Part shown: piece by piece, positions 39,730-59,782 of the stretch
Numbering within the stretch: the stretch's first letter is position 1
How the letters are laid out: each line of letters opens with the position of its first letter
Source of the DNA: Holophagales bacterium
GTDB lineage: Bacteria > Acidobacteriota > Thermoanaerobaculia > UBA5066
Direction: 5' to 3'
DNA length: 64,000 nt
Assembly: GCA_016714815.1 (NCBI GenBank)
Contig: JADKBZ010000016.1
Coordinates: 37,659-101,658, forward strand
Translations under genes and position numbers: made by a program
The notes under the pieces: model-generated
What the model saw: the letters and a program-made list of their open reading frames with translations, nothing else
What the model was told of the DNA's origin: nothing
Database searches by the model: none

Positions 39730-39788
39730 GAAGATGCGGCCCGCACCGTGCGGATCGAACCTCCGGGATCGGAGGGAAGGGCGCTGCC

Positions 39789-43514: not shown

Positions 43515-43541
43515 AACGGCGATGACGTGAAGGAGCCGGCC

Positions 43542-45575
43542 ATGACGCTCGACGACCCGAAGACGGAACCCGCAGCGGCGATGGTCTCGTTCGGGTCCGT
43601 GAGCTTTGAGGACCCGGATGCCTGGCTCGAGGAGGAGACCGAGACGGTCCTCTCGTGGCAGGCGGAGCAGGACGCGCGGGCGGCGTCCTGGCTCGCGGCG
43701 CGGCCCGGGTTCGCAGACCTTTGTGAGCGCATCGCCGCGCTCGACTCCAACCAGGCCGTGTCGGCGCCGCAGTACGGCGGTGGCCGCTGGTTCCGGCAGC
43801 GGGTGCCGGAGGGCGAGGACCTGGCAATTCTCGAGGTCGCGGAGACACCGACGGGAGAGGGCCGCCGGGTCGTCGACCTGAACGTGCTGCGAACCAGCGA
43901 GCCGCTGCTCATTCCCTGGTTCGTCCCCTCGCCCGACGGCCGCAGGCTGGCGTACTCGCGGTCCGCAGTGGGGCGGGAGCCCGAGTCGTTCCAGGTCATC
44001 GACGTGGAGACGGGCGAGCTCCTCCTCGCGGGCGTCCCGCAGGAGCGGGCGACGTCCCCGGTCTGGCTGCCGGACGGAAGCGGATTCACCTATCGGGCCA
44101 TCGATCCGGCCGTCTCGAAGAGCGACAGCCTCATCTTCCACCTCACCCTGGGCGAGGCGCCGCCGACGAAGCCGGAGCCGCTCGACCTGGGCCACCCGAT
44201 GTCGTGGCCCGCGAGCGCCGCGGGCGGCCGCTACGTCCTCGTCTACTCCAACCACATGGAGCCGAGGCCCGACTTCATCCGGGAGATCGGCGGCGCCTGG
44301 CGTCCGTTCCTGAAGGCCGTGCCCGGCATGTTCCGCGGCGTCGTCCTGGGCGAGAAGTTCATCGCCATCACGACCGACGGTGCCGCGCGGGGCCGGCTGG
44401 TCTCGATCCCGCTCGACACTCCTTCGGACCGCGACGCCTGGCAGGAGCTCGTCCCGGGCTCCGACGCCGTCCTCGCCTCTATCGCCGCCGTCGGGCAGCG
44501 CCTGGTCCTCGTGGAGCTCGTCGACACCTACGCCCGCCTGCGCGTTCTCGGCGCCGACGGCCAGGTCGAGGGAGAGATCGCCCTGCCGGGACGGGGAGTC
44601 GTGAACACGACCAGCACGAATGCCGTCGCGATCGCGTTCCTGGACTGCGTCGCCGTCGGGGGCGACGACGATGTCGTCTTCGTCTACTCCTCGCTGACCC
44701 AGGCCCCGGCGCTCTACCGCGCCAGCGTCGTCGATCGGACGAGCGAACCCCTCACGCCGCCCGGGGCCCGGCTCGACGCCCTCGTGACCGACCACTCCGC
44801 CACGAGCGCGGACGGCACCCGGGTCCGCTATCGCGTCGTGACGCGGAAGGACGACCGGTCCGGGTCCCGGCCCACGATCGTCCACGCGCACGGCGGGTTC
44901 AACGTCGCCTTCCTGCCCGGATGGCCGGTCCCGTTTCTGGCCGCCTGGGTCCGGTCGGGCGGCGCTCTCGTGATCGCCCACGTACGCGGGGGCGGGGAGT
45001 TCGGGCCCGACTGGTGGCGGGCCGGGCAGCTCGCGCGGAAGCAGAACGGATTCGACGATCTCTACGCCGTCGCCGAGGACCTCGTGGCCCGAGGCGTCAC
45101 GATGCCCGGACGGCTGGGCGTCTACGGGACCTCCAGCGGCGGTACGCTGGCCGCCGTGGCTGCGGTCAAGCGCCCCGACCTGTTCCGGGCCGCCGTCCCC
45201 CAGGTCCCCATCACCGACCAGTTCGCGCTCGTCCGGGACCCCCTCACCTGGATGATCGCGAGGTTGGAGGACGGGGATCCGAACGAACCGGAGATGAGCC
45301 GGGTCCTCCTCTCCTGGTCCCCGTACCAGAACGTCGTCGACGGAGTGGCTTACCCGGCGGTCCTCCTGGACTGCGTGTCGAACGAACCGCGGTGTCCCGC
45401 GTGGCACGGCCGCAAGCTGGCGGCACGGATGCAGCGGGCGACGTCCTCCGGCCGTCCCGTCCTGCTCCGGGTCCGCCGGAGCGCGGGGCAACGCGCCGTG
45501 GGCGAGGCCGCGCAGCGCCTCCAGCAGGCCGAGTTGCTCGCCTTCTTCGTCGACCAGCTGGGGCTCCCGACATGA
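43542..45575 (+). CDS. prolyl oligopeptidase (S9A) family protein with a deviant catalytic triad
   Basis: DPDAWLE, SPDG propeller, VRGGGEFGPDW, GTSSGG; Asp site reads NEPRC and His site reads AGQR. Confidence 0.88.
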   Translation: MTLDDPKTEPAAAMVSFGSVSFEDPDAWLEEETETVLSWQAEQDARAASWLAARPGFADLCERIAALDSNQAVSAPQYGGGRWFRQRVPEGEDLAILEVAETPTGEGRRVVDLNVLRTSEPLLIPWFVPSPDGRRLAYSRSAVGREPESFQVIDVETGELLLAGVPQERATSPVWLPDGSGFTYRAIDPAVSKSDSLIFHLTLGEAPPTKPEPLDLGHPMSWPASAAGGRYVLVYSNHMEPRPDFIREIGGAWRPFLKAVPGMFRGVVLGEKFIAITTDGAARGRLVSIPLDTPSDRDAWQELVPGSDAVLASIAAVGQRLVLVELVDTYARLRVLGADGQVEGEIALPGRGVVNTTSTNAVAIAFLDCVAVGGDDDVVFVYSSLTQAPALYRASVVDRTSEPLTPPGARLDALVTDHSATSADGTRVRYRVVTRKDDRSGSRPTIVHAHGGFNVAFLPGWPVPFLAAWVRSGGALVIAHVRGGGEFGPDWWRAGQLARKQNGFDDLYAVAEDLVARGVTMPGRLGVYGTSSGGTLAAVAAVKRPDLFRAAVPQVPITDQFALVRDPLTWMIARLEDGDPNEPEMSRVLLSWSPYQNVVDGVAYPAVLLDCVSNEPRCPAWHGRKLAARMQRATSSGRPVLLRVRRSAGQRAVGEAAQRLQQAELLAFFVDQLGLPT

Positions 45576-45630
45576 GACGTACCGGCCGCCCGCGACGACC
45601 GGGCTCTTCAGAGACGAGAGGCGACCGCCG

Positions 45631-47055
45631 ATGACGGAACCCGTGACGAAAGCTCCTGAAGCGTCCGCCGCCCCGAAGGGCCTCGGCTGGCGAGTGCTGG
45701 CCGCGTACGCCCTTCCGACGTTGCCGCTCTTCTTCCTCATGGGCCCCGCGATCTCGGTGATCCAGGGGATCTACGCGAAATTCTTCGGGCTCGGCCTGGC
45801 GCAGATCGCCCTCGTGCTGATGATCGCCCGGAGCTTCAACGCGGTGACCGATCCGGTCATCGGCTACCTGTCCGACCGCTACCGGGCCCGGCGAGGTACC
45901 CGGAAACCGTTTCTCGTCGGAGGGTCCCTGCTCGCGGTCCTGGCCTGCTGGTTCCTCTACGTCCCGGTCGGCAAGGTCACGACGCTCTCGTTCCTTGGCT
46001 GGTTTCTGCTCGCGGACATCGGCTGGTCGATGTGCGCCGTTCCGTACTACGCCTGGATGGCGGAGCTGACGGAGGACTACCGCGAGCGGACTCGGATAGC
46101 GAGCTGGCGCGCCATGTCCGGATACTTCGGTTACCTCGCGTTCTTCGGCATGCCGATGGCCGCCGGGCCCTTCCTCGGAACGACCGAGTTCACGCCCGTC
46201 ACGCTGCGCTGGTGCGCGATCTTCGCCGCCGTCACCCTGCCCACCGCGGCCCTGATCGCCGCGTTCGTCGTCCCGAACGGGGCCGTCGCCGCACGGCCGG
46301 CCGCCAACCCCTTCCGGGGAGCGATGCGTGCGATCGCGGGGAATCGCCCTCTCTGGAGATTCATGGCGATGTACCTGGTCGGGGGCCTGGGCGCAGGCAT
46401 GGCCTGGGGCGTGGCGTTCTTCTACATCGACGGCTACCAGAAGCTCGGCGCGAAGTTCTCGGGGCTGCTCGTCCTCAGCATTCCGGTCGCCATCCTGGCC
46501 ACGCCCGTCTGGGGCTGGCTCTGCAGGCGGTTCGGGAAGCAGCAGGTGTGGGCCGCCGGCTACGTCGGAGCGAGCATCGCCTCGCTCGGGTACATCTTCA
46601 TCTCGCCGGGACCCGGAGCCGCGGTCCTCGTCGGGGTCACTCTGCTGCTGCTGAACGCCATGGTCGTGGTGGATCCGGTCGCCGGGCCGGCGATGCTGGC
46701 GGACGTCGTCGACTACGGACGCTGGCGGTTCGGTACCGACCAGGGAGGGACTTACTTCGCCCTCTACGGGATGATCCAGAAGCTCAACATCGGGATCGGA
46801 GCGGGGGCCGGGCTCGCGCTCGCCGGCGCGTTCGGCTTCGACGCCACGGTCGCGAAGCAGACACCGGGCGGGCTCGTCGGCTTGTTCCTCTCGCTCTCGG
46901 TGATGCCGGCCGTCTGCTACCTGATCTCGGCCGTCATGATCTGGCGCTTTCCGATCAACCAGAAGCGCCAGAAGGTCATCGTGAAGGCCATCGAGCGGAG
47001 GGAGCGGCGCCGCGCCGCGGCGGCTTTCGAGGCGCCGGCGGAGGTCGCACCGTGA
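45631..47055 (+). CDS. MFS transporter, GPH/MelB-like
   Basis: AVTDPVIGYLSD, AELTEDYRERT, MLADVVDY; ~12 TM. Confidence 0.9.
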   Translation: MTEPVTKAPEASAAPKGLGWRVLAAYALPTLPLFFLMGPAISVIQGIYAKFFGLGLAQIALVLMIARSFNAVTDPVIGYLSDRYRARRGTRKPFLVGGSLLAVLACWFLYVPVGKVTTLSFLGWFLLADIGWSMCAVPYYAWMAELTEDYRERTRIASWRAMSGYFGYLAFFGMPMAAGPFLGTTEFTPVTLRWCAIFAAVTLPTAALIAAFVVPNGAVAARPAANPFRGAMRAIAGNRPLWRFMAMYLVGGLGAGMAWGVAFFYIDGYQKLGAKFSGLLVLSIPVAILATPVWGWLCRRFGKQQVWAAGYVGASIASLGYIFISPGPGAAVLVGVTLLLLNAMVVVDPVAGPAMLADVVDYGRWRFGTDQGGTYFALYGMIQKLNIGIGAGAGLALAGAFGFDATVAKQTPGGLVGLFLSLSVMPAVCYLISAVMIWRFPINQKRQKVIVKAIERRERRRAAAAFEAPAEVAP

Positions 47056-48116
47056 GTACGAGCAGGCCGGCCGAAACGAGGAACGCCAGCGCCCTGCTGC
47101 GCGACGGACTGGTCTGGGACAACCACGGCTGCATGCCGGTGGGACGCCCGAACGACACGTCGTTCCTGCCGCAGCTCCGGCGCTACCGTTCGGCGGGCGT
47201 CGACGCCGTGATGCTCAACGTCGGCTTCGGCGACATGGGCGTCGAGGAGCACCTGCGCACGCTGGCCGACATGCGCCACTGGCTGAAGGCGCGGCCCGAC
47301 GAGTACGTGCTCATCGGCACGGCGGACGACGTCGAGCGGGCCCGCGCGACCGGCCGCCTCGCCGTCGGCTTCGACATCGAGGGCGCGAACGCGATCGCGG
47401 ACCAGCCGAGCCTCATCGAGACCTACTACGACCTCGGTGTCCGCTGGATGCTCCTGGCTTACAACCGGAACAACCGGGTCGGAGGCGGGTGCCAGGACGA
47501 GGACACGGGCCTGACGGCCTACGGACGCGAGGTCATCGCCGAGATGGAGCGCGTGGGGATGCAGGTCTGCTGCAGCCACACCGGGTACCGCACCGTCCGC
47601 GACGTCTTCGAGGTCGTCACGAAGCCGGTCATCTTCTCGCACAGCAACGCGAGAGCGGTTCACGCGCACCCGCGGAACGTCCCCGACGACCTGATCCGCG
47701 CCTGCGCCGCGACGGGGGGCGTCGTCGGCCTCAACGGCCTGAGCGTCTTCCTCGGCCCGGGCGAGGACCTCGTCGAGACCTTCGTGCGCCACGTCGAGCA
47801 CGTCGTCTCTCTCGTCGGTCCCGGGCACGTCGCCCTGGGGCTCGACTACGTCTTCGACCGGCAGGAGCTGGACGAGATCCTCGTCAAGATGCGCGCGACC
47901 TTCCCGCCGGGGCTCGGCTACGACGAGCCGCTGCGGTTCGTCGAGCCGGAGCAGCTGGAGCGGGTCGTCGAGGTCCTCCTCTCCCGCGGCTTCCGGACGG
48001 CGGACCTCGAGGCGCTCCTGGGCGGAAACCTGATGAGGCTGGCGAGGTCGGTCTGGAAGGCTCCGCGCCCGGCCGCGGAAGCGACGGGCGATCAGCGGAC
48101 GAGCTCTCTCCCGTGA
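47052..48116 (+). CDS. M19 (renal/membrane) dipeptidase family
   Basis: WDNHGC, FDIEG, GVRWMLLAYN, SH-T, FSHSN, RNVPD. Confidence 0.9.
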   Translation: MSTSRPAETRNASALLRDGLVWDNHGCMPVGRPNDTSFLPQLRRYRSAGVDAVMLNVGFGDMGVEEHLRTLADMRHWLKARPDEYVLIGTADDVERARATGRLAVGFDIEGANAIADQPSLIETYYDLGVRWMLLAYNRNNRVGGGCQDEDTGLTAYGREVIAEMERVGMQVCCSHTGYRTVRDVFEVVTKPVIFSHSNARAVHAHPRNVPDDLIRACAATGGVVGLNGLSVFLGPGEDLVETFVRHVEHVVSLVGPGHVALGLDYVFDRQELDEILVKMRATFPPGLGYDEPLRFVEPEQLERVVEVLLSRGFRTADLEALLGGNLMRLARSVWKAPRPAAEATGDQRTSSLP

Positions 48117-49402
48117 GAGGGCTGCGCGCCGTCTTTAGCGACTACGTCGAGGCAGCGCGCGCCTTCTCGCAGCCCGCGAGGCTGCTCGTCGTCTCCGTTT
48201 TCCTCGTCTGGGTCGCCCGGGGAATCCAGGGGGTCCTCTTCAACCTCTATCTCGTCGAGGCCGGCCACCAGGCGCCGTTCGTCGGCCGGGCCCTTGCGAT
48301 GACGGGGGCCGGCATCGCCCTCGCGGCCCTCCCGGCGGGGCTCTTCGCGGAGCGCTGGGGCCGGCGCCGCTGCCTGATGCTCGGCCTCGCCGCCGAGGGA
48401 ATCGGCCTCCTGCTCCGGGCCCTCGTGACGGATCCGGGGGCGATCCTCGCCTTGAGCTTCCTCGGAGGCGCCGGCCAGTCGCTCTACCAGATCGCCGCCC
48501 TGCCATTCCTGACCGAGCACTCCGGGTCGCGCGAGCGGACGCACCTCTTCAGCGTCGTCTTCTCGGCGGCTCTCCTGGCCGGCGTCGTGGGGAGCGCCGT
48601 CGGCGGCTTCCTGCCTGCCGCCCTGCTCTCTCTTCCCGACGCAGTCCGGCCCGGGTCGCTCGGGGCGTACCGGGGGGTGCTCGTCCTGGGCGGGCTCGTC
48701 GCGTTCTCCGCCTCCCTGCCGCTCCTGCGGCTGCGCGGGCTGCAGGAGGCGTCGGCCGAGCAGCAGCGGGCGGTGCAGCCGCCCGGTTCGGGACGACTGC
48801 TCGTCCCGATCGCGTTCAACTTCCTCCTCGTCGGGTGCGGCGCCGGCCTCGTCGTCCCCTTCATGAACCTCTACTTCAAGGACCGCTTCGCCTGCTCGGC
48901 CGCGCAGATCGGGGCGTACTTCTCGATCGCGTCGATCGTCACGGCGGTCGCGGGCCTCGCCGCGCCGCTCGTCGCGCGCCGGTTCGGGACCCTCCGGACG
49001 GCCGTCGCGTTCGAGCTCCTCTCGCTCCCATTCCTCGTCACGATGGGGGCGGAGAGCCGACTCGCCGTAGCAGTCGGGGCGTTCTGGCTCCGCGCGATGC
49101 TCATGCAGGCCGGGACGCCGTTGCTGCAGACCTTCGTCATGGAGGCCCTCCCGCCGGGCCTTCGCGCCCGCTCGAGCAGCGTCAACAACCTCGTCTGGAA
49201 CCTCGGCTGGGCCGCGAGCGCCGGAGGCGCCGGGGCTCTGATCGCGCGCTGGGGCTACGCGCTTCCGTTCTACCTGACCGCCGCGCTCTACGCGACGGCA
49301 TCCATCACCTTCTACCTTTCGTTCCGGCGCTTCCCGCGAGGCGGGGGAGAGCCGCGGATCGGAGAGGTCGCCATGAGCCTCGGTGCTCAGGAGGTCCACT
49401 GA
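48113..49402 (+). CDS. MFS transporter
   Basis: AERWGRRR motif A, ~12 TM; GTGA overlap. Confidence 0.88.
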   Translation: MRGLRAVFSDYVEAARAFSQPARLLVVSVFLVWVARGIQGVLFNLYLVEAGHQAPFVGRALAMTGAGIALAALPAGLFAERWGRRRCLMLGLAAEGIGLLLRALVTDPGAILALSFLGGAGQSLYQIAALPFLTEHSGSRERTHLFSVVFSAALLAGVVGSAVGGFLPAALLSLPDAVRPGSLGAYRGVLVLGGLVAFSASLPLLRLRGLQEASAEQQRAVQPPGSGRLLVPIAFNFLLVGCGAGLVVPFMNLYFKDRFACSAAQIGAYFSIASIVTAVAGLAAPLVARRFGTLRTAVAFELLSLPFLVTMGAESRLAVAVGAFWLRAMLMQAGTPLLQTFVMEALPPGLRARSSSVNNLVWNLGWAASAGGAGALIARWGYALPFYLTAALYATASITFYLSFRRFPRGGGEPRIGEVAMSLGAQEVH

Positions 49403-49403
49403 C

Positions 49404-50738
49404 ATGAAAGAGAGCGTTTTCGAAGTCCTGCGCGCGGAGGGGCTGAACCGCCTGCGGATCCACTACGACTGGAGGTGCGACGTCTTCTCCCTCTACGCGG
49501 CGCGAGAGTGGGACGCCGACACGTCGTTCGCCCGGTACAACGCGGCGTTCACCGCCTGGACCCTCTGCCCGTCCGACGGGCGGTACCTCAATCACGCCCA
49601 GACGGAGGCGGCCTTCGAGAAGCATGGGATGTCGGCGCACCTCGGCAGGGTCAAGGAGCTGATGCGGAAGGGGAGGCACATCCTCCTCGATTGCTACTTT
49701 CACGAGAAGCTCGACATCCGCTTCGTCAACCACATCCACAGCGACAAGCGCGGCGTCAACAACCGGCGCTCGTCGATCGTGATGGGCGGGATCCGGCGCC
49801 ACGAGCCGGGCGAGGACGAGATCGACGTCTTCGTCGACGGGATGAACCTCGGCCGCGGGATGACATTCAAGAACGTGGCGGCCGGCCTGCCGATGGGCGG
49901 CTGCAAGACGACCGTCCAGATGGCGCCGGTCGACCTCGGCGACCTCGACCAGGTCGGCTTCCTGGCCTACGCGACGGACCGGACCCGGAATACCGCCGGA
50001 CCGGACATGAAGTTCCCTCCGGAGCTCGCCGACGTCGTGAACGAGCACTTCTCGCTGCACTTCGTGGGCGGGCCGAAGGGGCCTCTGGGCCCCACCGGCA
50101 CCCCCACCGCCCACGGGGTCTACATGGCCGTGAAGCAGGGGGCGAGATTCCTCTGGGGTTCCGAGTCTCTCGAGGGGAAGACGATCGCCGTGCAGGGGCT
50201 GGGCGCCGTCGGGTTCCACCTGGCGGGACTCTACCTGAAGGAGGGCGCGCGCCTCATCGTCTGCGACCGCGAGCCGGCCGCCGTCGACGCGTTCCTGAAG
50301 GCACAGCCGGGCGCCGCGATCCGGGTCGTCGATCCCGGGGAGATCCTCGGCGTCGAGGCGGACGTCTTCTCTCCGGCCGCGGCCGGCGGCATCCTGACGG
50401 AAGAGAACATCCCGGACCTTCGCTTCAAGCTGATCATGGGAGGCGCGAACAACGTTCTCCGAGCCTCCAGCCAGGAAGAGGAGTACGCGCTGGCCCGGCT
50501 GCTCGCGAAGCACGGAGTGCTCTACCAGGTCGATTGGTGGCACAACGTCGCCGGAGTGATGGCTGGCTACGAGGAGTACGTGTACCAGCGCGAAGCCAGC
50601 ATCGAACGGCTGATGGAGAAGGTCGGGAAGCTCTGCACCGAGACGACGTGGGAGAACCTGACCGAGGCCCGTCGCGAGGGGATCACGCCGACCGAGCGCG
50701 CCTACCGAACGGCGGAGCGCGAGGTCTACGGGGAATAG
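49404..50738 (+). CDS. Glu/Leu/Phe/Val dehydrogenase family with N-terminal extension
   Basis: GGIRR, RGMTFKN, GGCK, TAHGV, QGLGAVG, GGANN. Confidence 0.88.
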   Translation: MKESVFEVLRAEGLNRLRIHYDWRCDVFSLYAAREWDADTSFARYNAAFTAWTLCPSDGRYLNHAQTEAAFEKHGMSAHLGRVKELMRKGRHILLDCYFHEKLDIRFVNHIHSDKRGVNNRRSSIVMGGIRRHEPGEDEIDVFVDGMNLGRGMTFKNVAAGLPMGGCKTTVQMAPVDLGDLDQVGFLAYATDRTRNTAGPDMKFPPELADVVNEHFSLHFVGGPKGPLGPTGTPTAHGVYMAVKQGARFLWGSESLEGKTIAVQGLGAVGFHLAGLYLKEGARLIVCDREPAAVDAFLKAQPGAAIRVVDPGEILGVEADVFSPAAAGGILTEENIPDLRFKLIMGGANNVLRASSQEEEYALARLLAKHGVLYQVDWWHNVAGVMAGYEEYVYQREASIERLMEKVGKLCTETTWENLTEARREGITPTERAYRTAEREVYGE

Positions 50739-50797
50739 AGGCTCTTTTAGGTGAATCGCGTCGCATCGATGACTGTGCCTGGCGGGAGGAAGGCCTC

Positions 50798-51997
50798 GTG
50801 ACACGGGTCTTCTCGTCCGACTATCGCGATCACGGGACCAGGTTCCCGGACCCCTTCCCGGTCCATCGGCTGAAGCGGGTCGATCGCCCGACCACCTGGA
50901 TCAACGAAGAAGAGATCCGGAGGGTCGACGAGCGGGACGGCGGATTCCACCGGGCCGGCCGCGGGGAATACGGCGGGCACATCCAGAAGGAGTACCACCG
51001 CTTTCAGGAGAAGTTCCCGCTCTCGGAAGCGCTCTTCGAGGTCACGCACCGGCTCGGCGAGCCCGACGCGGTCTCCGGCGCTCCGAGGCGAGGCCCGGCC
51101 CCGGGGACGGACGACCCGGCGGCGATGGCGAGGCACATCAAGGAGACCGGCTACTTCCTCCGGGCCGACATGATCGGGATCTGCAGGCTGCCGCCCTACG
51201 CGGTTTTCACCCATGGCCGCAAGGACGATCAGCCGATCGAGCTGACTCACGACTACGCGATCGCCATCCTGGTGGACCAGGACTACAAGACCTCGGCAGC
51301 GTTCAACGGGCGCGACTGGATCAGCAACTCGATGAGCCTGGTCGCCTATTCCCACTCGGCGTTCATCGCCTGCTCCCTGGCGGAGTACATCCGCTCGCTG
51401 GGATACGAAGCGCGGGCCCACCACGCGACGAACTACCAGGTCGTGCTCCCGCCGATCCTGCTCTGGGCGGGGCTGGGAGAGATGAGCCGGATGGGCGACG
51501 TCGTCCTGAACCCGTTCCTCGGCCCTCGCTTCAAGGCGGCGGTGGTGACGACCAGCCTGCCGCTGGAAGTCGACAAGCCGATCGACTTCGGGCTTCAGGA
51601 CTTCTGCGACAAGTGCGGGAAATGCGCCCGGGAGTGCCCGGTCCAGGCCATCTCCCACGGCGGCAAGGTCCGGGAGAAGGGATACGAGCGCTGGCCGGTG
51701 AACGTGGAGAAGTGCACGTCCATGCGGGTCGGGAATCGCCTCGGGTCGGGATGCGGAACCTGCATCAAAGTTTGCCCCTGGAACAAGCCCTTCACGCCGT
51801 TCCACCGGATGGTGAGCTGGAGCCTGAGGAACCTGCCCCCGACCCGCCGTCCCGCCATCTGGGCCGACGACCTGTTCGGGTACGGACGGCCGGACCCGAG
51901 ACGGAAGTGGTGGCTGGACCTCGAAGTGGTGGATGGAGAGTGGCGGATCCCGCGATGTGGGCCCTCGTCACAGCTCCCGGTCCGGGAGGAGCCCTGA
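50798..51997 (+). CDS. rdhA: cobalamin/2x[4Fe-4S] reductive dehalogenase, catabolic (non-respiratory) type
   Basis: ARHIKETGYFLRADMIGIC, DWIS, AGLGEMSRMG, NPFLGPRFK, TTSLPLEVDKPIDFGLQDFCDKCGKCARECP, CGTCIKVCPWNK; no Tat signal, no rdhB. Confidence 0.85.
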   Translation: MTRVFSSDYRDHGTRFPDPFPVHRLKRVDRPTTWINEEEIRRVDERDGGFHRAGRGEYGGHIQKEYHRFQEKFPLSEALFEVTHRLGEPDAVSGAPRRGPAPGTDDPAAMARHIKETGYFLRADMIGICRLPPYAVFTHGRKDDQPIELTHDYAIAILVDQDYKTSAAFNGRDWISNSMSLVAYSHSAFIACSLAEYIRSLGYEARAHHATNYQVVLPPILLWAGLGEMSRMGDVVLNPFLGPRFKAAVVTTSLPLEVDKPIDFGLQDFCDKCGKCARECPVQAISHGGKVREKGYERWPVNVEKCTSMRVGNRLGSGCGTCIKVCPWNKPFTPFHRMVSWSLRNLPPTRRPAIWADDLFGYGRPDPRRKWWLDLEVVDGEWRIPRCGPSSQLPVREEP

Positions 51998-51998
51998 C

Positions 51999-54065
51999 AT
52001 GACGCAACCGAGCACGACCGAAGTGGAAGCCCTCCTCGCGCCCTGGCCCGGTCCCTACGGCGGCCTGCCGCCCTTCGACGTGGCGACACCCGCCGCGATC
52101 GAGCGTGCGTTCGGGATCGCGCTCGAGAGGAAGCGCGCCGAACTGCGCGCCATCGGCGACAACCCGGCGCCGCCGACGTTCGAGAACACGGTGGAGGCGC
52201 TCGAGGACTCCGGACGGGAGCTCCGGCGCGTCTCCGTCGTCTACCAGGTCTTCGCGTCGACGATGGGGACGCCTCAGATGCGCGAGGTCGAAAAGAACGT
52301 CGCGCCTCTCCTCCCCGTCCTCGAGGACGAGATCGCGCACGACGACGCCCTCTTTGCGCGCATCGAGGCGGTCTGGCAGGGGAGGGAGGCCGCGGGCCTC
52401 ACGAGGGAGCAGGAGCGGCTGACGGAGCTCGTGCGCGACCGTCTGAAGCGGCGCGGGGCCGGGCTCCCGCCGGAGGCGAAGAAGCGCCTCGGGGAGATCA
52501 ACGCCCGCGTCGCCTCGCTCCAGGCGCGCTTCAACCAGAACCTCGTGACCGACCAGGACGGCCAGGCCGTCTTCATCGAGGACGAGAGCGGTCTCGACGG
52601 CCTCGGCGAGGAGCAGCGCCTCGCCGCCGCGCAGGCGGCGACCGAGCGCGGCCGGCCCGGGACCTGGGCGATCCCGAACAGGCGCCCCGCGGTCTGGCCC
52701 TTCCTGACGCAGTCCACCCGGCGCGACCTCCGCGAGAAGGTCTGGCGGATGTGGACGATGCGCGGAGACAACCCCGGCGAGAGCGACAACAAGCCGGTCA
52801 TCGCCGAGATCCTGAAGCTGCGCGGCGAAAAGGCTCGGCTTCTCGGCTTCCCCAGCTTCGCGCACTTCGCCACGGCCAACCGGATGGCCCGGACGCCGGA
52901 GGCGGCGCTCGAGCTGATGACGAAGACCTGGCAGAGCGTGATCGGGCCGACGCGCGCCCTCGTGGCGGACCTCCAGGCGATCGCCGACGCCGAGGGGGCC
53001 GGCATCCGCCTCGCGCCCTGGGACCGGCTCTTCTACTCGGCGAGGCTCCGCAAGTCCCGCTTCGACCTCGACGCCGACGCCGTGCGGCAGCACCTCGAGC
53101 TGGAATCGGTCCTGGCGGCGATCTTCTGGGCGGCGGGCCGCGTCCACGGCCTCGCGTTCCGCCAGCTCCCCGACGCACCGGTCTGCCACCCGTCGATCCG
53201 CGTCTTCGAGCTGAGCCGGGGCGGCGAGCCGGTCGGTCTCCTCTGGCTCGACGTCCTCGGCCGGCCGGGAAAGATGCACGGCTCGTGGCAGGCCGAGTAC
53301 CGCGCGGCGGAGTCGTTCCGGGGGCGGGTGCTGCCGATCTCCTCGGTGAACTCCGGCCTCCCGGCACCGCGGGACGGCGAGCCGGTCCTCCTCCCGTGGG
53401 AGTACGCGAACGTCCTCTTCCACGAGTTCGGTCACGCCCTCCACATGCTCCTCTCCGAGGCGCGCTACCCCTCCCTCGGGAGTGTCGCCGTGCCGTGGGA
53501 CTTCGTGGAACTCCCCTCGTTCCTCAACGAGCGGTGGCTCCTCGACCACGAGCTCCTCGCCCGCTTCGCGCGGCTGCACGGGACCGGCGCGCCGATCTCC
53601 GAGGAACTCGTGACGAGCATCGAGCGCGCGCTCCGCTTCGACCGCGTCCTGACGCTGAACCTCGACTTCCTCGGCGGGGCGATCGTCGACATGCGGATGC
53701 ACCTCCTGGCCGACGGCCGCGACGTCGACGCGGTCCGGCTCGAAGAAGAGACCCTCGCGGAGCTGGGGATGCCGGAGGCCTGGGACCTCATCATGAGGGT
53801 CCCGCACTGCTGGCACTCCATCTCCGACGGCTACGCGGCGGGCCTCTACTCCTACCTCTGGTCCGACGTCATGACGGCCGACGTCGCCGAGGCGTTCCTC
53901 TCCTCGCCCGGAGGTCTCTACGACGTGGAGACCGGCGAGCGGTGGCGACGGACGATCCTGAGCGTCGGGACGAGCGTCCCTGCCGAGGAGGCGTTCCGGG
54001 ACTTCATGGGGCGCGACCCCGACCCATCGGCCCTGCTGCGCCGATTCGGGCTGGAGGCCCGATGA
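51999..54065 (+). CDS. M3 family metallopeptidase (Dcp-like), copy A
   Basis: [41 protein letters not shown]. Confidence 0.93.
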
Positions 54066-54151
54066 CAATGCCGACCCGCAAGACCCTCCCGCGATCCCTC
54101 GATTCCCTTCACCGCGACTTCCACCGCACCGACCCGGGGAGCGCCCCATGA
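54062..54151 (+). CDS. 29-aa mini-ORF ([29 protein letters not shown])
   Basis: ATGA overlaps with both the upstream M3 stop and the downstream IYD start. Confidence 0.45.
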
Positions 54152-54873
54152 GCCAGCCGCCGGAATCCGATCCCTGCGTCCTCGAGCCCCTTCCCGACTA
54201 CCGCGAATATCCGGCGGAGGAGATGCGCGAGCGCGCCCGATGGTTCTACCGGGACGTCGCGCGACGTCGCACGGTGCGCGAGTTCGACCGGCGCCCGGTC
54301 CCCCGGGAGGTGATCGAGCAGTGCCTTCTCGCGGCGGGCACCGCGCCCTCGGGCGCGAACCAGCAGCCGTGGCACTTCGCCGTCGTCACCGATCCCGTTC
54401 GCAAGAAGAAGATCCGCGAAGCGGCCGAGGAGGAGGAGCGGGAGTTCTACGCCGGCCGGGCGCCGCAGGAGTGGCGGGACGCGCTGGCGCCCCTCGGGAC
54501 GGACGAGAACAAGCCCTTCCTGGAGGACGCCCCCGTCCTCATCGCGATCTTCGCGCAGGCTCACGGCGTCCGGCCGGACGGGGAGCGGCTCAAGCACTAC
54601 TACGTGCACGAGTCGGTCGGGATCGCGACGGGCTTCCTCCTCGTCGCCCTCCACCACGCCGGTCTCGCGACGCTGACCCACACGCCGAACCCGATGGGCT
54701 TTCTCAACGAGTGCTGCGGGCGGCCGTCCTCCGAGAAGCCGATGATCCTCCTCGTCGTCGGCTATCCCGCACCGGGCTGCCGGGTCCCCGTGCACGGCGG
54801 GATCAAGAAGCCGCTGGAGGGGATCTCGAGCTGGCTCGGGCCCGAAGGCGGCCGAACGGAGCCGACTCCATGA
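54148..54873 (+). CDS. iyd: iodotyrosine deiodinase (IYD)-like flavoprotein, nitroreductase fold
   Basis: [56 protein letters not shown]. Confidence 0.88.
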
Positions 54874-56982
54874 CGGATCGCAACGGAGACCAGCCAGCGC
54901 CCCGCACCCTCGACCTCTCGCCGGCCGCGGAGGCGCTCCTCGCACCCTGGACCGGGCCCTGCGGGGGCACGCCGCCGTTCGACGTGGCGGAGCCCGCGTC
55001 GATCGAGAGCGCCTACCGGGTCGCCATCGCCCGCAAGCGCGAGGAGGTCGCGGCGATTGCCTCGGACCCGGCGCCGCCCACGTTCGAGAACACGATCGCG
55101 GCGCTCGAGGATGCCGGCCGGGCGCTCCGCCGTGTCGACACCCTCTTCCGGGTCTTCTCGTCGACGCGGAGCTCCGGGGAGATGCGTGAGGTGGAGACGA
55201 GACTCAAGCCGCTCCTTCCCGCTCTCGAGGACGAGATTGCCCACGACGACGCCCTCTTTGCCCGGATCCGTGCAGTCGACCAGTCGGCCGAGCAGGCGGG
55301 GCTCACGCCCGAGGAGATTCGCCTGACCCGCGTCGTCCGCGACCGGCTCTCGCTGCGGGGCGCCGGACTCGAGCCGGGCGCCAGGGCGCGCCTCGCCCAG
55401 ATCAGCGGACGGATCGCCGAGCTCTCCGCCGCCTTCAGCCAGAACCTCCTCGCGGACGAGGAGGGGCAGCAGGTCCCCCTCGACGACGAGGCGGATCTCG
55501 AGGGCCTCGACGAGGAGTTCCGCGGCGTGCTCGCATCCGCCGCCGTGTCGCGCGGGCTCTCCGCGCGCTGGGCCGTCCCCAGCACGCGCGCCCACGTCAT
55601 GCCCGTTCTGATCTCTTCGGCGCGTCGCGAGGTCAGGGAACGGGTCTGGCGCATGTGGGTGCGGCGCGGCGGGAACCCCGGCGCGCACGACAACAGGCCC
55701 GTCGTCGCCGAGATCCTCCGCCTGCGCGCGGGAGAAGGCCCGGCTCCTCGGCTTCCCGACCTACGCCCACCTCGCCACGGCCGACCGGATCGCGGGGACG
55801 CCGGAGAACGCCCTCGCCCTCGTGAAGCGGGTCTGGGACGGCGTCGTCGGCGCCGCTCGCGACCGGCTCGCCTCGATGCAGGCGCTCGCGGACGAGGACG
55901 GCGTCTGCCCGATCGCGCCCTGGGACCGGCGCTTCTACGCGAGCCGGCTGCGCCGGGCACGCCTGGACCTCGATGAAGGAGAGGTGAGCGCCTACCTGCC
56001 GGTTGAGTCGATCCGCGAGGGAGCGTTCCACGCGGCGAGCCGGCTTCACGGACTCGACCTCGCGGAAGTCCACGACGTCCCCGTCTGCCACCCCGACGTC
56101 CGCGTCTTCGCCGTGCGGCGAGGGAAGGAGTCGATCGGCCTCCTCTGGCTCGACCTCTACGCGCGCGACGGCAAGGTCTCGGGCGGCTGGATGGACGAGT
56201 ACCGCGCGGCGGAGTCCTTCCGCGGAAGGGTCCTTCCGCTCGTGTCGATCAACATGAACGTCGCGAGACCGGCGGCGGGAGCGACGGCGCTCCTCTCATG
56301 GTGGGACGCTCTCACCTTCTTCCACGAGCTGGGCCACGCTCTCCACATGCTCTGCTCGAAGGCGCGCACTCCCTCGCTCGGGAGCTTCACGGTCGCCCCC
56401 GACGTTCTCGAGCTGCCGTCGATCCTGAACGAGCGCTGGCTCACGACGCTCGAGGTGCTCGAACGGTTCGCGCGGCACCACCGGACCGGAGAGCCGATGC
56501 CGAAGCGTCTCGTCGAGAGGATCGAGGAAGCCCGGGTCTTCGACCCCTCCGACGGGGCGACCGCGAGTCTCGGCTACCTGGCGACGGCCTTCGTCGACCT
56601 CGCCGTCCACCTCGCGGCCGATGGCGGGGAGGTCGACCCTGTCGCTGTAGAGGAGAGGGCCCTTGCAGACCTCGGCCTCCCGCCAGCTGCCGAGCCGCTC
56701 CATCGCGTCACGCACCTCCGTCACGCCTTCGCCGGCATCTACGAGGACCGCTACGCGGCCGGCTACTACTGTTACCTCCAGGCGGACGTCCTCGCGGCCG
56801 ACGCGGCGGAGGCATTCCTCTCGTCACCGGGAGGGCTCTACGACGCCGCGACGGCCGAGCGGTATCGGCGCACGATCCTCGCCGTCGGTCACGGCGTCCC
56901 CGCGGCGGAGGCCTTCCGGTCGTTCCGGGGCCGCGATCCGGACCCCGAGGCGCTGACGAGACGGTTCGGACGGAAATCCTGA
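54870..56982 (+). pseudogene. M3 family metallopeptidase copy B with +1 frameshift at ~55731 (pseudogene or sequence error)
   Basis: ctgcgcgcg-g-gagaaggcccggctcctcggcttc: removing one G restores [12 protein letters not shown] as in copy A; HELGH and ELPS intact downstream. Confidence 0.85.
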
Positions 56983-57002
56983 CATTCCGAACGGAGTGTG
57001 CG

Positions 57003-58241
57003 ATGAAGCAGATTCTCTTCCGCGGTTTCCACCTTCTCGACCCGGAGCTCGACGAGCCCCGGGCAGGCTGCGAGCTCCTCGTCGAGGGCGACCGGATCCG
57101 CGAGGTCTCCGACCGGCCGATCCAATCGTCCGGGGCCGAGGTCATCGACGGCGACGGCGCTTTCCTGATGCCCGGCCTCATCGACGCCCACGTCCACGTG
57201 ACGCTTTCCGAGGTGGCGCTCCGGCGGCTGGAGGAGGTGCCGCTGACGCTGATGACGGCCCGGGCCGCCGTCCAGATGCGGGCGATGCTCGACCGTGGCT
57301 TCACCACGGTGCGCGACACCGGGGGTGCCGACTGGGGCCTGAGGGCTGCCGTGGAGCAGGGACTCTTCGCCGGGCCGCGCCTCTTCATCGCCGGACGCGC
57401 CATCGGGCCCACGGGCGGCCACAGCGACATTCGCCGCCGGACCGACAGCGGGATCCGCTGTCACTGCTGCGACGCGCTGACGTTCGCCCTCGCCGTGGCC
57501 GATGGCGAGACCGAGGTCCGCAAGGCCGTCCGCGAGGAGCTCCGTCAGGGCTGTGACCAGGTCAAGATCATGATGTCGGGCGGGGTCGCGTCGCCCTTCG
57601 ACCCGATCGACAGCCTCCAGTTTTCCCCCGGCGAGGTCGCCGCCGCGGTCGAGGAGGCCCACGCGTTCGGCCGGTACGTCTGCGCTCACGCCTACACGCC
57701 GGCCGCGATCACGCGCGCGGCCCACGCCGGGGTCCGCACGATCGAGCACGGCAACCTGATCGACGACGCCTCCGCGCTCCTCATGGCAAGCAAGGGAATG
57801 TTCCTCGTCGCGAACCTCGTGACGTACTTCGCGATGCGCGAGCGCGCGGCCGAGCTCGGAATGACCGCGGAGATGCTCGCCAAGAACGAGGTCGTCATCG
57901 AGGGCGCGCTCCGCTCTCTCGAGGTCTGCCGACGCGCCGGCGTGCCGGTCGCCTTCGGCAGCGACCTTCTCGGACAGCTCCAGGAGGAGCAGTCGCGCGA
58001 GTTCACGCTGCGCGCGCAGGTCGTCAGCCCCGTCGAGGCGATCCGCTCGGCGACGACGATCGCCGCGCGCGTCCTCCGGCGCGAAGGCGTCCTCGGGTGT
58101 CTCAGGCCGGGCGCTCTCGCCGACCTGATCGCGGTCGACGGCGACCCGCTGAAGGACCTCTCCCTCCTCGAAGGCCAGGGCCGGCACCTGACCCTGATCA
58201 TGAAGGGCGGCCGGTTCCACCGTCGCCCCGGAGGGCTGTAG
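57003..58241 (+). CDS. metal-dependent amidohydrolase (Xaa-Pro dipeptidase/carboxypeptidase-like)
   Basis: MPGLIDAHVH, GFTTVRD, KIMMSGGV, AHAY, IEHG, GSD, GALADLI. Confidence 0.92.
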   Translation: MKQILFRGFHLLDPELDEPRAGCELLVEGDRIREVSDRPIQSSGAEVIDGDGAFLMPGLIDAHVHVTLSEVALRRLEEVPLTLMTARAAVQMRAMLDRGFTTVRDTGGADWGLRAAVEQGLFAGPRLFIAGRAIGPTGGHSDIRRRTDSGIRCHCCDALTFALAVADGETEVRKAVREELRQGCDQVKIMMSGGVASPFDPIDSLQFSPGEVAAAVEEAHAFGRYVCAHAYTPAAITRAAHAGVRTIEHGNLIDDASALLMASKGMFLVANLVTYFAMRERAAELGMTAEMLAKNEVVIEGALRSLEVCRRAGVPVAFGSDLLGQLQEEQSREFTLRAQVVSPVEAIRSATTIAARVLRREGVLGCLRPGALADLIAVDGDPLKDLSLLEGQGRHLTLIMKGGRFHRRPGGL

Positions 58242-58243
58242 AG

Positions 58244-59782
58244 GTGGGCTCAGACGGACCGAGGGACCCCCGCGAGGTCGTAGACCTCACCTCGAGGGAA
58301 GAGCTCCAGAGCGTCGTGGAGTTCCTCGCTCACGACCTACTCGAAGGTCGCGCGCCGGGAACCCGGGGCGGCCGGCTGAGCGAGCTCTACATGCAGAGCC
58401 TCTTTAAGCTCCTCGGCCTCCGGCCGGGGATCGACGGCGGCTACCTGCAGCCCTTCCGGATGAAGGGGTACACCACACGCCACGTGGCGGTCGGGGTCCC
58501 CGGGCTCGAGCTCAGGAGTCCGGACGACGTGATGGGCGTTCAGGCCCGCGACGAGCCCTCCCTGGACGTGGAAGCCGAGGCCGTCTTCGTCGGCTTCGGG
58601 ATCCGGACGCCCCTCTTCGGCTGGGACGACTTCAAGGGGCACGACGTGAGGGGCAAGGTCCTGATCGTGCGGGCGAACGACCCGGGCCACTGCGACCCGT
58701 CGCTCTTCGAAGGCGCCTCCGTGACCTACTTCGGGAGGTGGAGCTACAAGATCGAGGAAGCGCGGCGGGCGGGAGCCCGGGCGATCCTGATCGTCCACAC
58801 CGACGAGAGTGCCGGGTACGACTGGGGCGTCGTGGAGCGCTCCTGGGGCCGGGAGAACGTCTTCCTGCCGTCGTCCCTCGAGAACGACCTCGAGTTTCAG
58901 GGATGGATCAGGGAGGAGAGCCTCCGCCGGCTCCTGGCGACGAAGGGGCTGAGCCTCGACGACGTCTACCGCGACACGCTGAAGGAGACCTTCGAGCCCG
59001 TCCCTCTCGGGATGTCGATCCGGATCACGGGCGAGAACGAGTTCCGGACGGTCGAAGCGGCGAACGTCGTTGCCGAGATTTCCGGCCGGAGCGAGAGGCG
59101 GATCGTGCTCTCCGCCCACATCGACCACATCGGCCACCAGCCCGACCAGCCGGGCGACAACGTCTTCAACGGAGCCATCGACAACGGCTCCGCCGTGGCC
59201 GCCATGGTCCTTGCGGCGAAGGCGCTGAACGCGTTCCGCGAGGAGCTGCCGTACACGATCACGCTCCTCGCCTGCACGGCCGAGGAGGGAGGGCTCCTCG
59301 GGTCGTACCACTACGTGCGGAACACCGATCGCTCGAGCATCCTGGCGAACGTGAACTTCGAGTCGACGCCGGTCTGGGAGAGGAGCCGGAGCGTGATGGG
59401 CGTCGGGGCTCACTACTCCACGCTGGAAGGCCACCTGAAGGAGATCGCGGCCGAGGAGGGCCTCCTCTATTCGGAGTTCTCGCGGACGGACCAGGGCTTC
59501 TTCTACCGCTCCGACCAGTTCCCGTTCGCCCGGTACGGCATCCCGGCTGTCTGGATCTCGGCCGGCGAGGACTTCGAGAGCGGCCAGGACCACTTCGGGG
59601 AATTCCTCCGGAACACGTACCACACGGTCCGCGACGACTTCGACCCCGGGTGGGAGCTCGAGGCGCTCCGGCAGACCGTCCGGAGCGCCGTGATGCTCGT
59701 CGAACGGATCGGGCGGAGCCCGGAGCCGCCTCGGTGGAAGGCGAGGCTCACGTTCCCGTCGGAGGCCCGGGAGCCGGGCTGA
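58244..59782 (+). CDS. M28 family peptidase with PA domain
   Basis: LAHDLLEGR, TYFGRWSYK, SAHIDH, GAIDN, AEEGGLLGS, RSDQ, YHT. Confidence 0.92.
   Translation: MGSDGPRDPREVVDLTSREELQSVVEFLAHDLLEGRAPGTRGGRLSELYMQSLFKLLGLRPGIDGGYLQPFRMKGYTTRHVAVGVPGLELRSPDDVMGVQARDEPSLDVEAEAVFVGFGIRTPLFGWDDFKGHDVRGKVLIVRANDPGHCDPSLFEGASVTYFGRWSYKIEEARRAGARAILIVHTDESAGYDWGVVERSWGRENVFLPSSLENDLEFQGWIREESLRRLLATKGLSLDDVYRDTLKETFEPVPLGMSIRITGENEFRTVEAANVVAEISGRSERRIVLSAHIDHIGHQPDQPGDNVFNGAIDNGSAVAAMVLAAKALNAFREELPYTITLLACTAEEGGLLGSYHYVRNTDRSSILANVNFESTPVWERSRSVMGVGAHYSTLEGHLKEIAAEEGLLYSEFSRTDQGFFYRSDQFPFARYGIPAVWISAGEDFESGQDHFGEFLRNTYHTVRDDFDPGWELEALRQTVRSAVMLVERIGRSPEPPRWKARLTFPSEAREPG

Follow-up and report, generated by a model that had tools for sequence, protein, structure and literature searches.

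The rdhA-like gene in this window (the whole 64-kb stretch of DNA that was analyzed) raises two questions: does its product belong to the reductive dehalogenases, and if so, on what substrate might it act within a row of peptidase genes? We examined the reading frame itself (Table 1). The ORF starts with GTG, a Shine-Dalgarno-like sequence (GGGAGGAAGG) lies a few bases 5' of this start, and the start residue of the product is common to its homologues, which share the consensus MTRxFxSDYRD. Its GC3 of 0.90 is the same as that of the neighboring genes, in a window with a GC content of 71% whose genes were taken from a GC3-based gene caller. The ORF is real, and the 399 residues and two Fe-S motifs that a first-pass annotation had read from it were recovered by the ORF and the motif positions. 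All eight cysteines of these motifs were invariant in 120 of 120 close homologues (the best 120 of 2793 matches).

Table 1. Coordinates of rdhA, its predicted functional residues and the surrounding gene row (Np, NpRdhA)
Feature	Position	Strand	Basis or remark
TetR regulator and TonB-dependent receptor (CarboxypepD_reg, Plug and barrel)	36438..39680	+	Annotation; head of the row
Alpha/beta hydrolase, DUF885, alpha/beta hydrolase, S9 prolyl oligopeptidase, MFS_2, M19 dipeptidase, MFS_1	39789..49402	+	
Glu/Leu/Phe/Val-family amino-acid dehydrogenase, closest to Leu/Trp/Phe dehydrogenases	49383..50738	+	Directly upstream of rdhA
rdhA-like gene, 399 aa, homologue of the 'simplified cytosolic type'	50798..51997	+	ORF, profiles, predicted fold, tree
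Pocket residues G49 (Np F290), Y66 (Np K307), N177 (Np A419)	50942..51328	+	Distinguish the compact clade from NpRdhA
S180 ... Y184 (SLVAY), aligned with Np S422 (phenol-OH binding) and Y426 (proton donor)	51335..51349	+	Alignment
R231 (EMSR), aligned with Np R473 (EVSR)	51488..51490	+	Alignment
K246 (GPRFK), aligned with Np K488	51533..51535	+	Alignment
First [4Fe-4S] motif, C270-x2-C273-x2-C276-x3-C280-P281	51605..51640	+	Sequence
Second cluster motif, C306 ... C319-x2-C322-x3-C326-P327	51713..51778	+	Sequence
R310 (CTSMR), aligned with Np R552	51725..51727	+	Alignment
M3 peptidyl-dipeptidase (Dcp-like)	51999..54065	+	ATG 1 nt after the rdhA stop; adjacency conserved
Iodotyrosine deiodinase (IYD) homologue, FMN nitroreductase fold	54148..54873	+	Two genes downstream of rdhA
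Second M3 peptidase	54870..56982	+	Interrupted by a 1-nt insertion (55729) in the window
Amidohydrolase and M28 aminopeptidase	57003..59782	+	Downstream part of the row

The N-terminus of the product (RdhA), MTRVFSSDYRDHGTRFPDPFPVHRLKRVDRP, contains neither an RR-x-F-L-K motif nor a hydrophobic stretch (residues 1-60), and no twin-arginine (Tat) signal was detected in these residues. Hydropathy revealed none of the one to three N-terminal TM helices that mark transmembrane RdhAs, and the Kyte-Doolittle maximum over 19 residues, 1.09, was located in an internal helix. No rdhB was found adjacent to rdhA, which is flanked by the amino-acid dehydrogenase and M3 peptidase genes; the gaps of 59 nt to the former and 1 nt to the ATG of the latter therefore leave no space for one. 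The protein terminates ~10 residues past the region homologous to NpRdhA 260-632 and is thus without a fused reductase. The lack of a Tat signal, of RdhB and of a fused reductase, as claimed in the first-pass annotation, was confirmed in turn by the missing RR motif and low hydropathy maximum, by the two flanking gaps and by the end of the protein at the catalytic core.

Against the NCBIfam reductive dehalogenase model TIGR02486, RdhA scored 193.9 bits and passed the curated cut-off of 160.35, whereas the QueG model TIGR00276 gave 36.2 bits and failed its cut-off of 200; Pfam produced matches to Fer4-type domains only. Residues 19-390 aligned with residues 260-632 of NpRdhA (4RAS) at ~44% identity (E = 2.6e-120), which, like the TIGR02486 score, is far above chance. 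The sequence scores were 405 bits for NpRdhA, 106 bits for PceA and 33 bits for QueG. An AF2 model (pLDDT 74.8, pTM 0.81; with low-confidence segments, 232-242 and 310-325, beside K246 and R310) was compared using Foldseek, and the TMq values were 0.82-0.85 against NpRdhA (~371 columns), 0.57-0.66 against PceA/RDH and 0.34-0.37 against QueG; in this model, the cobalamin-binding core fold appears to be present. In an NJ tree, RdhA fell within a clade of ~370-425 aa proteins, sister to the NpRdhA/BhbA-like forms of 650-1087 aa, and the Tat- and TM-types lay elsewhere; the sister placement is provisional because the tree was rooted on a Tat-type sequence and carries neither support values nor a QueG outgroup. 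Judged from sequence, the assignment of RdhA to the cytoplasmic (non-respiratory) branch of the RdhA family, and not to QueG, is supported. The earlier proposal of a compact cytoplasmic RdhA accordingly agrees with the TIGR02486 score, the NpRdhA match, the predicted fold and the tree, and the scores do not place it with QueG, a grouping that had been named as part of its refutation (33 bits, TM ~0.36, and 36 bits against a TIGR00276 cut-off of 200).

We next considered the active site, for which the NpRdhA alignment was ungapped from query residue 121 onward (offset 242). The residues aligned with NpRdhA S422, Y426, K488 and R552, whose functions have been described (PMC7565698), are S180, Y184, K246 and R310, each invariant in 120/120 close homologues (the best 120 of 2793); furthermore, 6ZY0, the K488Q variant, departs from the wild type at exactly the column of K246. 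The SLVAY tyrosine and GPRFK lysine had been picked out beforehand as NpRdhA-like active-site residues and indeed align with Y426 and K488. However, the EMSR arginine named with them, R231, aligns with R473; the catalytic R552 corresponds to R310, and an equivalent arginine therefore exists, other than the one first proposed. Since the S/Y/K/R set is invariant, halophenol dehalogenation is the most reasonable predicted chemistry. Several pocket residues are replaced relative to NpRdhA (F290>G49, K307>Y66, P311>Q70, A419>N177, M423>L181 and N452>A210), including the carboxylate-binding entrance residue K307 and A419 of the second-halogen pocket. The substitutions N177, Y66 and G49 suggest that 3,5-dibromo-4-hydroxybenzoate is not the substrate.

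Among known systems, NpRdhA (4RAS, 6ZXU/6ZXX/6ZY0/6ZY1) resembles RdhA in its eight Fe-S cysteines, its S/Y/K/R set, the whole catalytic half and its cytoplasmic nature, with neither a Tat signal nor RdhB. Unlike RdhA, NpRdhA possesses a vestigial, duplicated cobalamin-binding-like N-terminal domain of ~250 aa that makes it monomeric. This domain (73-222) gave only a weak second match to the single core of RdhA (104-262), and RdhA therefore has no second copy of it. Because RdhA is without this domain, which replaces the partner subunit in monomeric NpRdhA, it probably forms a homodimer like that of PceA. The hosts also differ, NpRdhA coming from an aerobic marine alphaproteobacterium and RdhA from an acidobacterial class, and RdhA, unlike NpRdhA, has no ferredoxin or ferredoxin-reductase genes nearby. 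Within the catabolic class (NpRdhA, BhbA and JtRdhA; Payne/Fisher), as defined in PMC10463259, all characterized members use ortho-halophenols, and JtRdhA takes 3-bromo-4-hydroxyphenylacetate. RdhA has the S/Y/K/R residues of this class and lacks its vestigial N-terminal domain, and neither a C-terminal PDOR reductase in the protein nor clustered ferredoxin and ferredoxin-reductase genes in the 64-kb window were found. [quoted passage not shown] PceA and the membrane RDH complex (4UQU, 8Q4H) share with RdhA a single cobalamin core and a ferredoxin-like domain, but at ~20% identity and TM ~0.6. QueG (epoxyqueuosine reductase, 5D08) belongs to the same superfamily and has the Fe-S domain in common with RdhA; the similarity otherwise amounts to 33 bits.

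The compact architecture is widespread. A word-indexed protein search with RdhA returned 2793 matches, the best 120 of which measure 379-447 aa, some of them already labeled 'reductive dehalogenase' by JGI or NCBI. Identity within the compact clade is 63-72% across Acidobacteriota, Desulfobacterota, Chloroflexota, KSB1 and Aminicenantes, and anaerobes (Desulfobacterota, Anaerolineae, Syntrophorhabdales and Aminicenantes) are its typical hosts. Such conservation across phyla, unlike the usual diversification of dehalogenases, counts against the reading that we favor below and may indicate another substrate, of a housekeeping-like kind. A 2025 cold-seep survey (Microbiome, PMC12219181) described a 'simplified cytosolic type' with a mean of 395 aa and no vestigial domain. 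RdhA matches this type in its length, its position in the cytosolic clade and its lack of a vestigial domain, TM helix, Tat signal and RdhB, and it groups with compact Desulfobacterota and Chloroflexota proteins. However, that description is in silico, its typical hosts are Desulfobacterota and Chloroflexota, whereas the host of RdhA is a wastewater Thermoanaerobaculia, and the gene context of RdhA (peptidase operon, amino-acid dehydrogenase and IYD homologue) differs from that account. The novelty that the first-pass annotation implied for the compact architecture thus does not hold, given the number of matches and the 2025 description; nor, at class level, does its statement that the lineage was not known for such enzymes, since RDH homologues have previously been reported in Thermoanaerobaculia, the probable host class (PMC8528874). 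The RdhA subtype is already known from metagenomes, and the new point is its genomic context.

In the window, the genes from the first alpha/beta hydrolase to MFS_1 are co-directional, tightly packed and in the same row as rdhA. The 1-nt insertion that splits the second M3 peptidase was missing from four independent runs. The IYD homologue matched HhIYD (5KO7) with E = 4.2e-68 and mouse/human IYD with E of about 1e-50, and its E97/Y101/K122 align with the Glu/Tyr/Lys zwitterion-binding triad of the E1 lid, leaving the triad intact; by these alignments, its product appears to fit the iodotyrosine deiodinase subgroup of the nitroreductase superfamily. IYD (5KO7, 3GB5, 4TTB) and enzymes of the RdhA types both carry out reductive dehalogenation ortho to a phenolic hydroxyl group, but IYD has an FMN nitroreductase fold with neither B12 nor Fe-S clusters, is strictly specific for the amino-acid zwitterion and is unrelated in sequence to RdhA. 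At gathering thresholds, Rfam identified no cobalamin riboswitch or any other RNA family in the whole window, and Pfam annotation of ~50 window genes revealed neither B12 genes (synthesis or uptake) nor a ferredoxin, flavodoxin or reductase partner; the only Fe-S proteins annotated there are RdhA and an SdhB-like subunit (22579..23373). These missing partner genes also count against the favored reading. Two biofilm metatranscriptome assemblies contain the rdhA region on a single 16-kb contig; this is weak evidence for expression because DNA carry-over is possible.

We compared this arrangement with those of relatives. A module comprising M19-(MFS)-ELFV dehydrogenase-RdhA-M3 was common to five contig lineages, namely the window, L001 (95% identity), L084-86 (86%), L081 (81%) and L090 (80%), with junctions that overlap or span 1-60 nt, and the dehydrogenase-rdhA adjacency was kept in all close relatives examined. 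In this wastewater Thermoanaerobaculia lineage, rdhA belongs to a conserved peptide-uptake/peptide-degradation operon. In a synteny comparison across 80 genome loci, the operon was shared by L001 only. Among the related operons compared, the IYD gene was confined to L001 and the window lineage, and it was absent from the fetched parts of L081, L085 and L090, in which no other halogen-related genes were seen either; these related operons carry genes of a D-amino-acid/cell-wall-peptide type (beta-lactamase family, MR_MLE and DAO). Neighbors were unrelated around the compact homologues L002-L011 (63-68% identity) and around L082, L083, L087 and L088, and no universal partner gene emerged across the loci of the compact homologues. 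In Desulfobacteraceae, the neighbors were a cupin, a small nitroreductase and DUF3786; in Anaerolineae, a hydantoin racemase and an S-Me-THD-like gene; elsewhere, a tandem RdhA paralogue or TRAP DctP was observed. The nitroreductase near the L082 RdhA was rejected as an IYD orthologue, with 42% identity over only 73 aa. Since compact homologues of other phyla (63-74% identity) have variable neighbors, the peptide link is lineage-specific; this, together with the restriction of IYD to two lineages and the D-amino-acid/cell-wall-peptide gene content of the related operons, counts further against the favored reading. An independent case was found in an alphaproteobacterial aromatic-catabolism cluster (L061; 57.6% GC, genes from a plain ORF listing), in which IYD-like and RdhA genes lie close together.

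On balance, we consider it moderately probable that the gene encodes a soluble, cytoplasmic RdhA of the compact clade, with a predicted cobalamin and two [4Fe-4S] clusters, that dehalogenates ortho-halophenols and possibly acts on a halotyrosine-derived substrate; the finding itself stands at the level of sequence annotation. By analogy with NpRdhA, Ser/Lys/Arg would hold the hydroxyl of a bound ortho-halogenated phenol whose halogen sits on cobalt, a ferredoxin or flavodoxin encoded by a separate gene would deliver two electrons through both clusters, and Tyr184 would protonate the carbon as the halide is released. Because rdhA sits between the amino-acid dehydrogenase and M3 peptidase genes and near the IYD homologue, the physiological substrate is most likely, with modest support, a halogenated tyrosine-derived metabolite released in peptide catabolism, the candidates being halotyrosine itself and the deaminated 3-halo-4-hydroxyphenyl-pyruvate or -acetate. 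A more specific proposal, that the B12-dependent RdhA and the flavin-dependent IYD jointly dehalogenate halotyrosine residues and their deaminated products within this peptide-scavenging operon, is tentative, although conceivable.

We further considered the possibility that RdhA, like QueG, is a non-dehalogenating corrinoid/Fe-S reductase that reduces a non-halogenated metabolite derived from amino acids or peptides. The unusual conservation of the compact clade across phyla suggests one fixed natural substrate and would agree with such a role, as would the divergent pocket residues G49, Y66 and N177, the lack of further halogen-related genes in the fetched stretches of L081, L085 and L090, and the literature, in which we found no report of an assay for any compact-clade member, a point that also weighs against the favored reading. 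However, the complete NpRdhA set for phenol binding and proton donation is invariant, the curated RDH model was passed and the QueG model widely failed (36 bits against 200), QueG gave the lowest similarity in the three structural comparisons (TM ~0.36), and a homologue of IYD, a known type of halotyrosine dehalogenase, lies in the same gene row; we therefore regard this alternative as unlikely. It is less probable still that RdhA serves as a cytoplasmic electron sink, in which ortho-halophenol dehalogenation would re-oxidize ferredoxin from amino-acid fermentation as a Stickland-like acceptor, by way of the amino-acid dehydrogenase and a 2-oxoacid:ferredoxin oxidoreductase, and would not be a step of carbon catabolism. 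In five contig lineages rdhA adjoins, and is apparently translationally coupled to, the amino-acid dehydrogenase gene, the clade is typical of anaerobes, and a dedicated NAD(P)H reductase is neither fused nor adjacent, all of which fit this role; yet the genes for 2-oxoacid:ferredoxin oxidoreductase and ferredoxin are missing from the window, and there is no sign of energy coupling. This role is compatible with the halophenol dehalogenase favored above and differs in physiological purpose only. A role in organohalide respiration, as a respiratory RdhA, or in tRNA modification, as a QueG-type enzyme, would agree with the shared superfamily fold and Fe-S motifs but is highly improbable, given the lack of a Tat motif, TM helix or space for rdhB, the PceA score well below that of NpRdhA, the tree position apart from Tat- and TM-types, and the low QueG scores; the respiratory, transmembrane and QueG readings were thus all rejected because their defining features are missing.

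The conserved position of rdhA yields a concrete, testable substrate hypothesis, namely halotyrosine-derived phenols; were this correct, organohalide turnover would be tied to the everyday breakdown of proteins by bacteria of wastewater and sediment. If RdhA and IYD do act together, Thermoanaerobaculia would carry out reductive dehalogenation as a regular step in the catabolism of proteins and amino acids, with wastewater proteins, chlorinated or biogenic, as example sources of chloro-, bromo- or iodotyrosine. The compact clade, which is large, comprising thousands of metagenomic sequences from several anaerobic phyla, would then represent a dedicated natural halophenolic-acid dehalogenase or a ferredoxin-oxidizing electron sink. 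At ~400 aa, soluble, and with neither a duplicated domain nor a membrane partner, its members may be the easiest RdhAs for expression and engineering.

We determined that the RdhA scores 193.9 bits against TIGR02486, the curated NCBIfam reductive-dehalogenase model (cut-off 160.35); Pfam detected only Fer4-type domains. Among PDB entries the best match was NpRdhA, the catabolic reductive dehalogenase of Nitratireductor pacificus (405 bits, E = 2.6e-120), followed by the respiratory enzyme PceA (106 bits) and epoxyqueuosine reductase, QueG (33 bits). An AlphaFold2 model built with 40 homologues as input (pLDDT 74.8, pTM 0.81) gave TM scores of 0.82-0.85 to NpRdhA, 0.57-0.66 to PceA and the membrane RDH complex, and ~0.36 to QueG. 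These results support the family proposed in the first-pass annotation, and the predicted fold; the comparison with QueG that it had suggested spoke against QueG identity, the QueG model reaching only 36 bits against a cut-off of 200. Residues 19-390 aligned with positions 260-632 of NpRdhA, comprising the functional cobalamin core and the ferredoxin-like domain, and the NpRdhA N-terminal domain (73-222) gave just a weak second match, onto the same single core. The query is therefore NpRdhA minus its vestigial duplicated domain. It also has no fused reductase in this alignment, as first noted, unlike the self-sufficient BhbA/JtRdhA, which carry a C-terminal reductase.

The 399-aa ORF holds up as a real gene: it opens with GTG, has GGGAGGAAGG nine bases upstream of the start, shares its start residue with homologues, and its codon-position GC (0.63/0.48/0.90) agrees with the genuine genes of the window (71% GC). 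The two anticipated Fe-S motifs were found as C270xxC273xxC276xxxC280P and C306 ... C319xxC322xxxC326P. The sequence contains neither a Tat motif nor a hydrophobic segment (maximum 19-residue Kyte-Doolittle mean, 1.09), which supports the predicted absence of a Tat signal and a cytoplasmic location, and the flanking gaps of only 59 nt and 1 nt exclude an rdhB gene at the locus, also as predicted.

Residue equivalences were read from the HMMER alignment with NpRdhA, in which S422, Y426, K488 and R552 hold the substrate phenolic OH and give the proton (PMC7565698). Their equivalents are S180, Y184, K246 and R310. The Tyr of SLVAY and the Lys of GPRFK had thus been correctly recognized, whereas the Arg of EMSR, taken for the active-site residue, is R231 and aligns with R473 instead, the catalytic R552 corresponding to R310 in CTSMR. 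These four residues and all eight cysteines are unchanged in 120 of 120 close homologues, supporting the catalytic residues and metal ligands, and the chemistry of NpRdhA is probably conserved. Other pocket residues depart from NpRdhA consistently across the compact clade: G49 replaces F290 of the hydrophobic pocket, Y66 replaces K307, which forms the entrance salt bridge with the benzoate carboxylate, and N177 replaces A419 of the second-bromine pocket, where A419M moves preference to a mono-halogenated substrate. The substrate is probably other than 3,5-dibromo-4-hydroxybenzoate, and N177 may confer a preference for mono-halogenated rings.

A word-indexed search of 5.8 billion proteins returned 2793 matches, the best 120 of which have identities of 63-86% and lengths of 379-447 aa; JGI or NCBI had already annotated several of these as 'reductive dehalogenase'. 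An exhaustive search of 50%-identity representatives gave 335 clusters at E<=1e-30, including compact (370-424 aa) and long (650-1087 aa) forms. In a neighbor-joining tree of the core region, computed without support values, the query group clustered with other compact proteins, and the sister group of this clade was that of the long NpRdhA/BhbA-like forms; both lay apart from sequences with a Tat signal and from those with N-terminal TM helices. Members of the compact clade from Acidobacteriota, Desulfobacterota, Chloroflexota (Anaerolineae), Aminicenantes, Syntrophorhabdales and KSB1 share 63-72% identity, with >100 invariant columns in a 40-sequence alignment, a conservation far above that usual among reductive dehalogenases. 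In the enzymology literature the vestigial duplication defines catabolic RdhAs, and the four subfamilies recognized include no compact cytosolic one (PMC10463259). The query falls outside the respiratory, transmembrane and QueG subfamilies, and also outside the classical catabolic one with its duplication; its features agree with the uncharacterised 'simplified cytosolic type' recently named in a 2025 cold-seep survey (mean 395 aa, without the vestigial domain, typical hosts Desulfobacterota and Chloroflexota; PMC12219181), for which our literature searches turned up no biochemical work on any protein.

Coordinates of features in the window and on contigs bearing relatives
Sequence	Coordinates	Strand	Feature
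Window	31562..36356	other strand	Two M16 peptidases, PLP-dependent decarboxylase; directly upstream of the locus
Window	36438..59782		TetR regulator, TonB-dependent receptor (CarboxypepD_reg domain), then 14 genes in one direction, overlapping or very closely spaced
Window	39789-59782		Tightly packed co-directional row containing RdhA
Window	43000..58458		Single 16-kb metatranscriptome contig
Window	49383..54873		Region of sampled words
Window	49383..50738		ELFV (Glu/Leu/Phe/Val-family) dehydrogenase
Window	50798..51997	+	RdhA
Window	54148..54873		IYD (iodotyrosine deiodinase) homologue, 241 aa
Window	54870..56982		Second M3 peptidase
Window	55729		Extra base
L004	2046..4530		Tandem RdhA-like genes: 419-aa ORF, then 385-aa paralogue with Fer4_16 domain
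L006, Desulfobacteraceae MAG	1554..3393		Compact RdhA, then cupin, 177-aa nitroreductase-family protein, DUF3786/Fe-S protein
L007, Desulfobacteraceae MAG	3936..5020		As L006
L061, alphaproteobacterial MAG OZ244893.1	3755..11980		IYD-like gene, 732-aa long-form RdhA, LigB extradiol dioxygenase, FAA hydrolase
L081	9298..17173		After RdhA-M3: M24 Xaa-Pro peptidase, beta-lactamase-family, amidohydrolase, MR_MLE (dipeptide-epimerase-like) and DAO-family genes
L085	2926..8820		As L081

Behind the regulator and receptor at the head of the row, the order is alpha/beta hydrolase, DUF885, alpha/beta hydrolase, S9 prolyl oligopeptidase, MFS_2 transporter, M19 dipeptidase, MFS_1 transporter, ELFV dehydrogenase, RdhA, M3 dipeptidyl-peptidase, IYD homologue, second M3 peptidase, amidohydrolase and M28 aminopeptidase; with peptidases or hydrolases as 9 of the 14 genes, this looks like a peptide-utilisation locus. 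The dehydrogenase is nearest to Leu/Trp/Phe dehydrogenases; its matches begin at about residue 133, after a ~130-aa N-terminal extension unmatched in the solved enzymes and kept in relatives (444-457 aa). Contigs of four independent runs lack the extra base, which leaves the two parts of the second M3 peptidase in different frames. L091/L092 have an undisrupted ORF of 703 aa for this gene, and the L001 copy is uninterrupted too; a sequence or assembly error in the window is more probable than a real pseudogene.

All close relatives examined have the M19-(MFS)-dehydrogenase-RdhA-M3 module (L001, 95%; L084-86, 86%; L081, 81%; L090, 80%), supporting operon conservation, with junctions from a 4-nt overlap to ~120 nt, mostly <60 nt. 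The module did not recur near homologues from other phyla (63-74% identity), where the neighbours vary. The Desulfobacteraceae gene set may represent lineage-specific redox partners. The L081 and L085 operons suggest catabolism of D-amino-acid-containing or cell-wall peptides.

The best genomic match, L001, is a Thermoanaerobaculia (Acidobacteriota) MAG carrying the complete operon with unchanged gene order, its RdhA being 95% identical in protein sequence. The lineage inhabits wastewater, activated sludge and biofilm, whose metagenomes contain near-identical DNA. In two biofilm metatranscriptome assemblies 99% of the sampled words of 49383..54873 were present, and the region forms a single contig of even depth (~18x), compatible with either a polycistronic transcript or DNA carry-over. 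The description of the lineage as not known for organohalide turnover is unsupported at class level, since RDH homologues were reported in marine Thermoanaerobaculia (PMC8528874).

The IYD homologue is clear (E = 4e-68 to the Haliscomenobacter enzyme, HhIYD 5KO7; ~1e-50 to mammalian IYD), and its E97/Y101/K122 align with the Glu/Tyr/Lys triad that binds the halotyrosine zwitterion. Two mechanistically unrelated halophenol dehalogenase types thus lie <=2.2 kb apart. L061, whose IYD-like gene is 58% identical to that of the window and lies within 8 kb of its RdhA, is an independent case of such proximity, in an aromatic-catabolism setting.

The RdhA would bind base-off cobalamin and two [4Fe-4S] clusters and would have as electron donor a ferredoxin or flavodoxin from a separate gene, no such gene being found within the window. 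By analogy with NpRdhA, a halogen ortho to the phenolic OH would be removed via a Co-halogen adduct, with Y184 as proton donor. Since the query lacks the vestigial domain that takes the place of a second subunit in NpRdhA (PMC10463259), a PceA-like homodimer is likely. More speculatively, the operon and the IYD neighbour point to a halotyrosine-derived substrate, either halotyrosine itself or 3-halo-4-hydroxyphenyl-pyruvate or -acetate. Against this reading, within the RdhA row the IYD gene was seen in the window lineage and L001 alone, not being kept in related operons; these contain genes of a D-amino-acid or cell-wall-peptide type (beta-lactamase family, MR_MLE, DAO); the suggested search for B12 uptake or synthesis genes found neither these nor a B12 riboswitch within the window; and the unusually high cross-phylum conservation of the clade could reflect a different fixed substrate, perhaps non-halogenated. 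The compact architecture has already been described and is not new with this gene; the added value lies in its conserved peptide-catabolic surroundings and the neighbouring IYD gene, which yield a testable substrate hypothesis for the RdhA.
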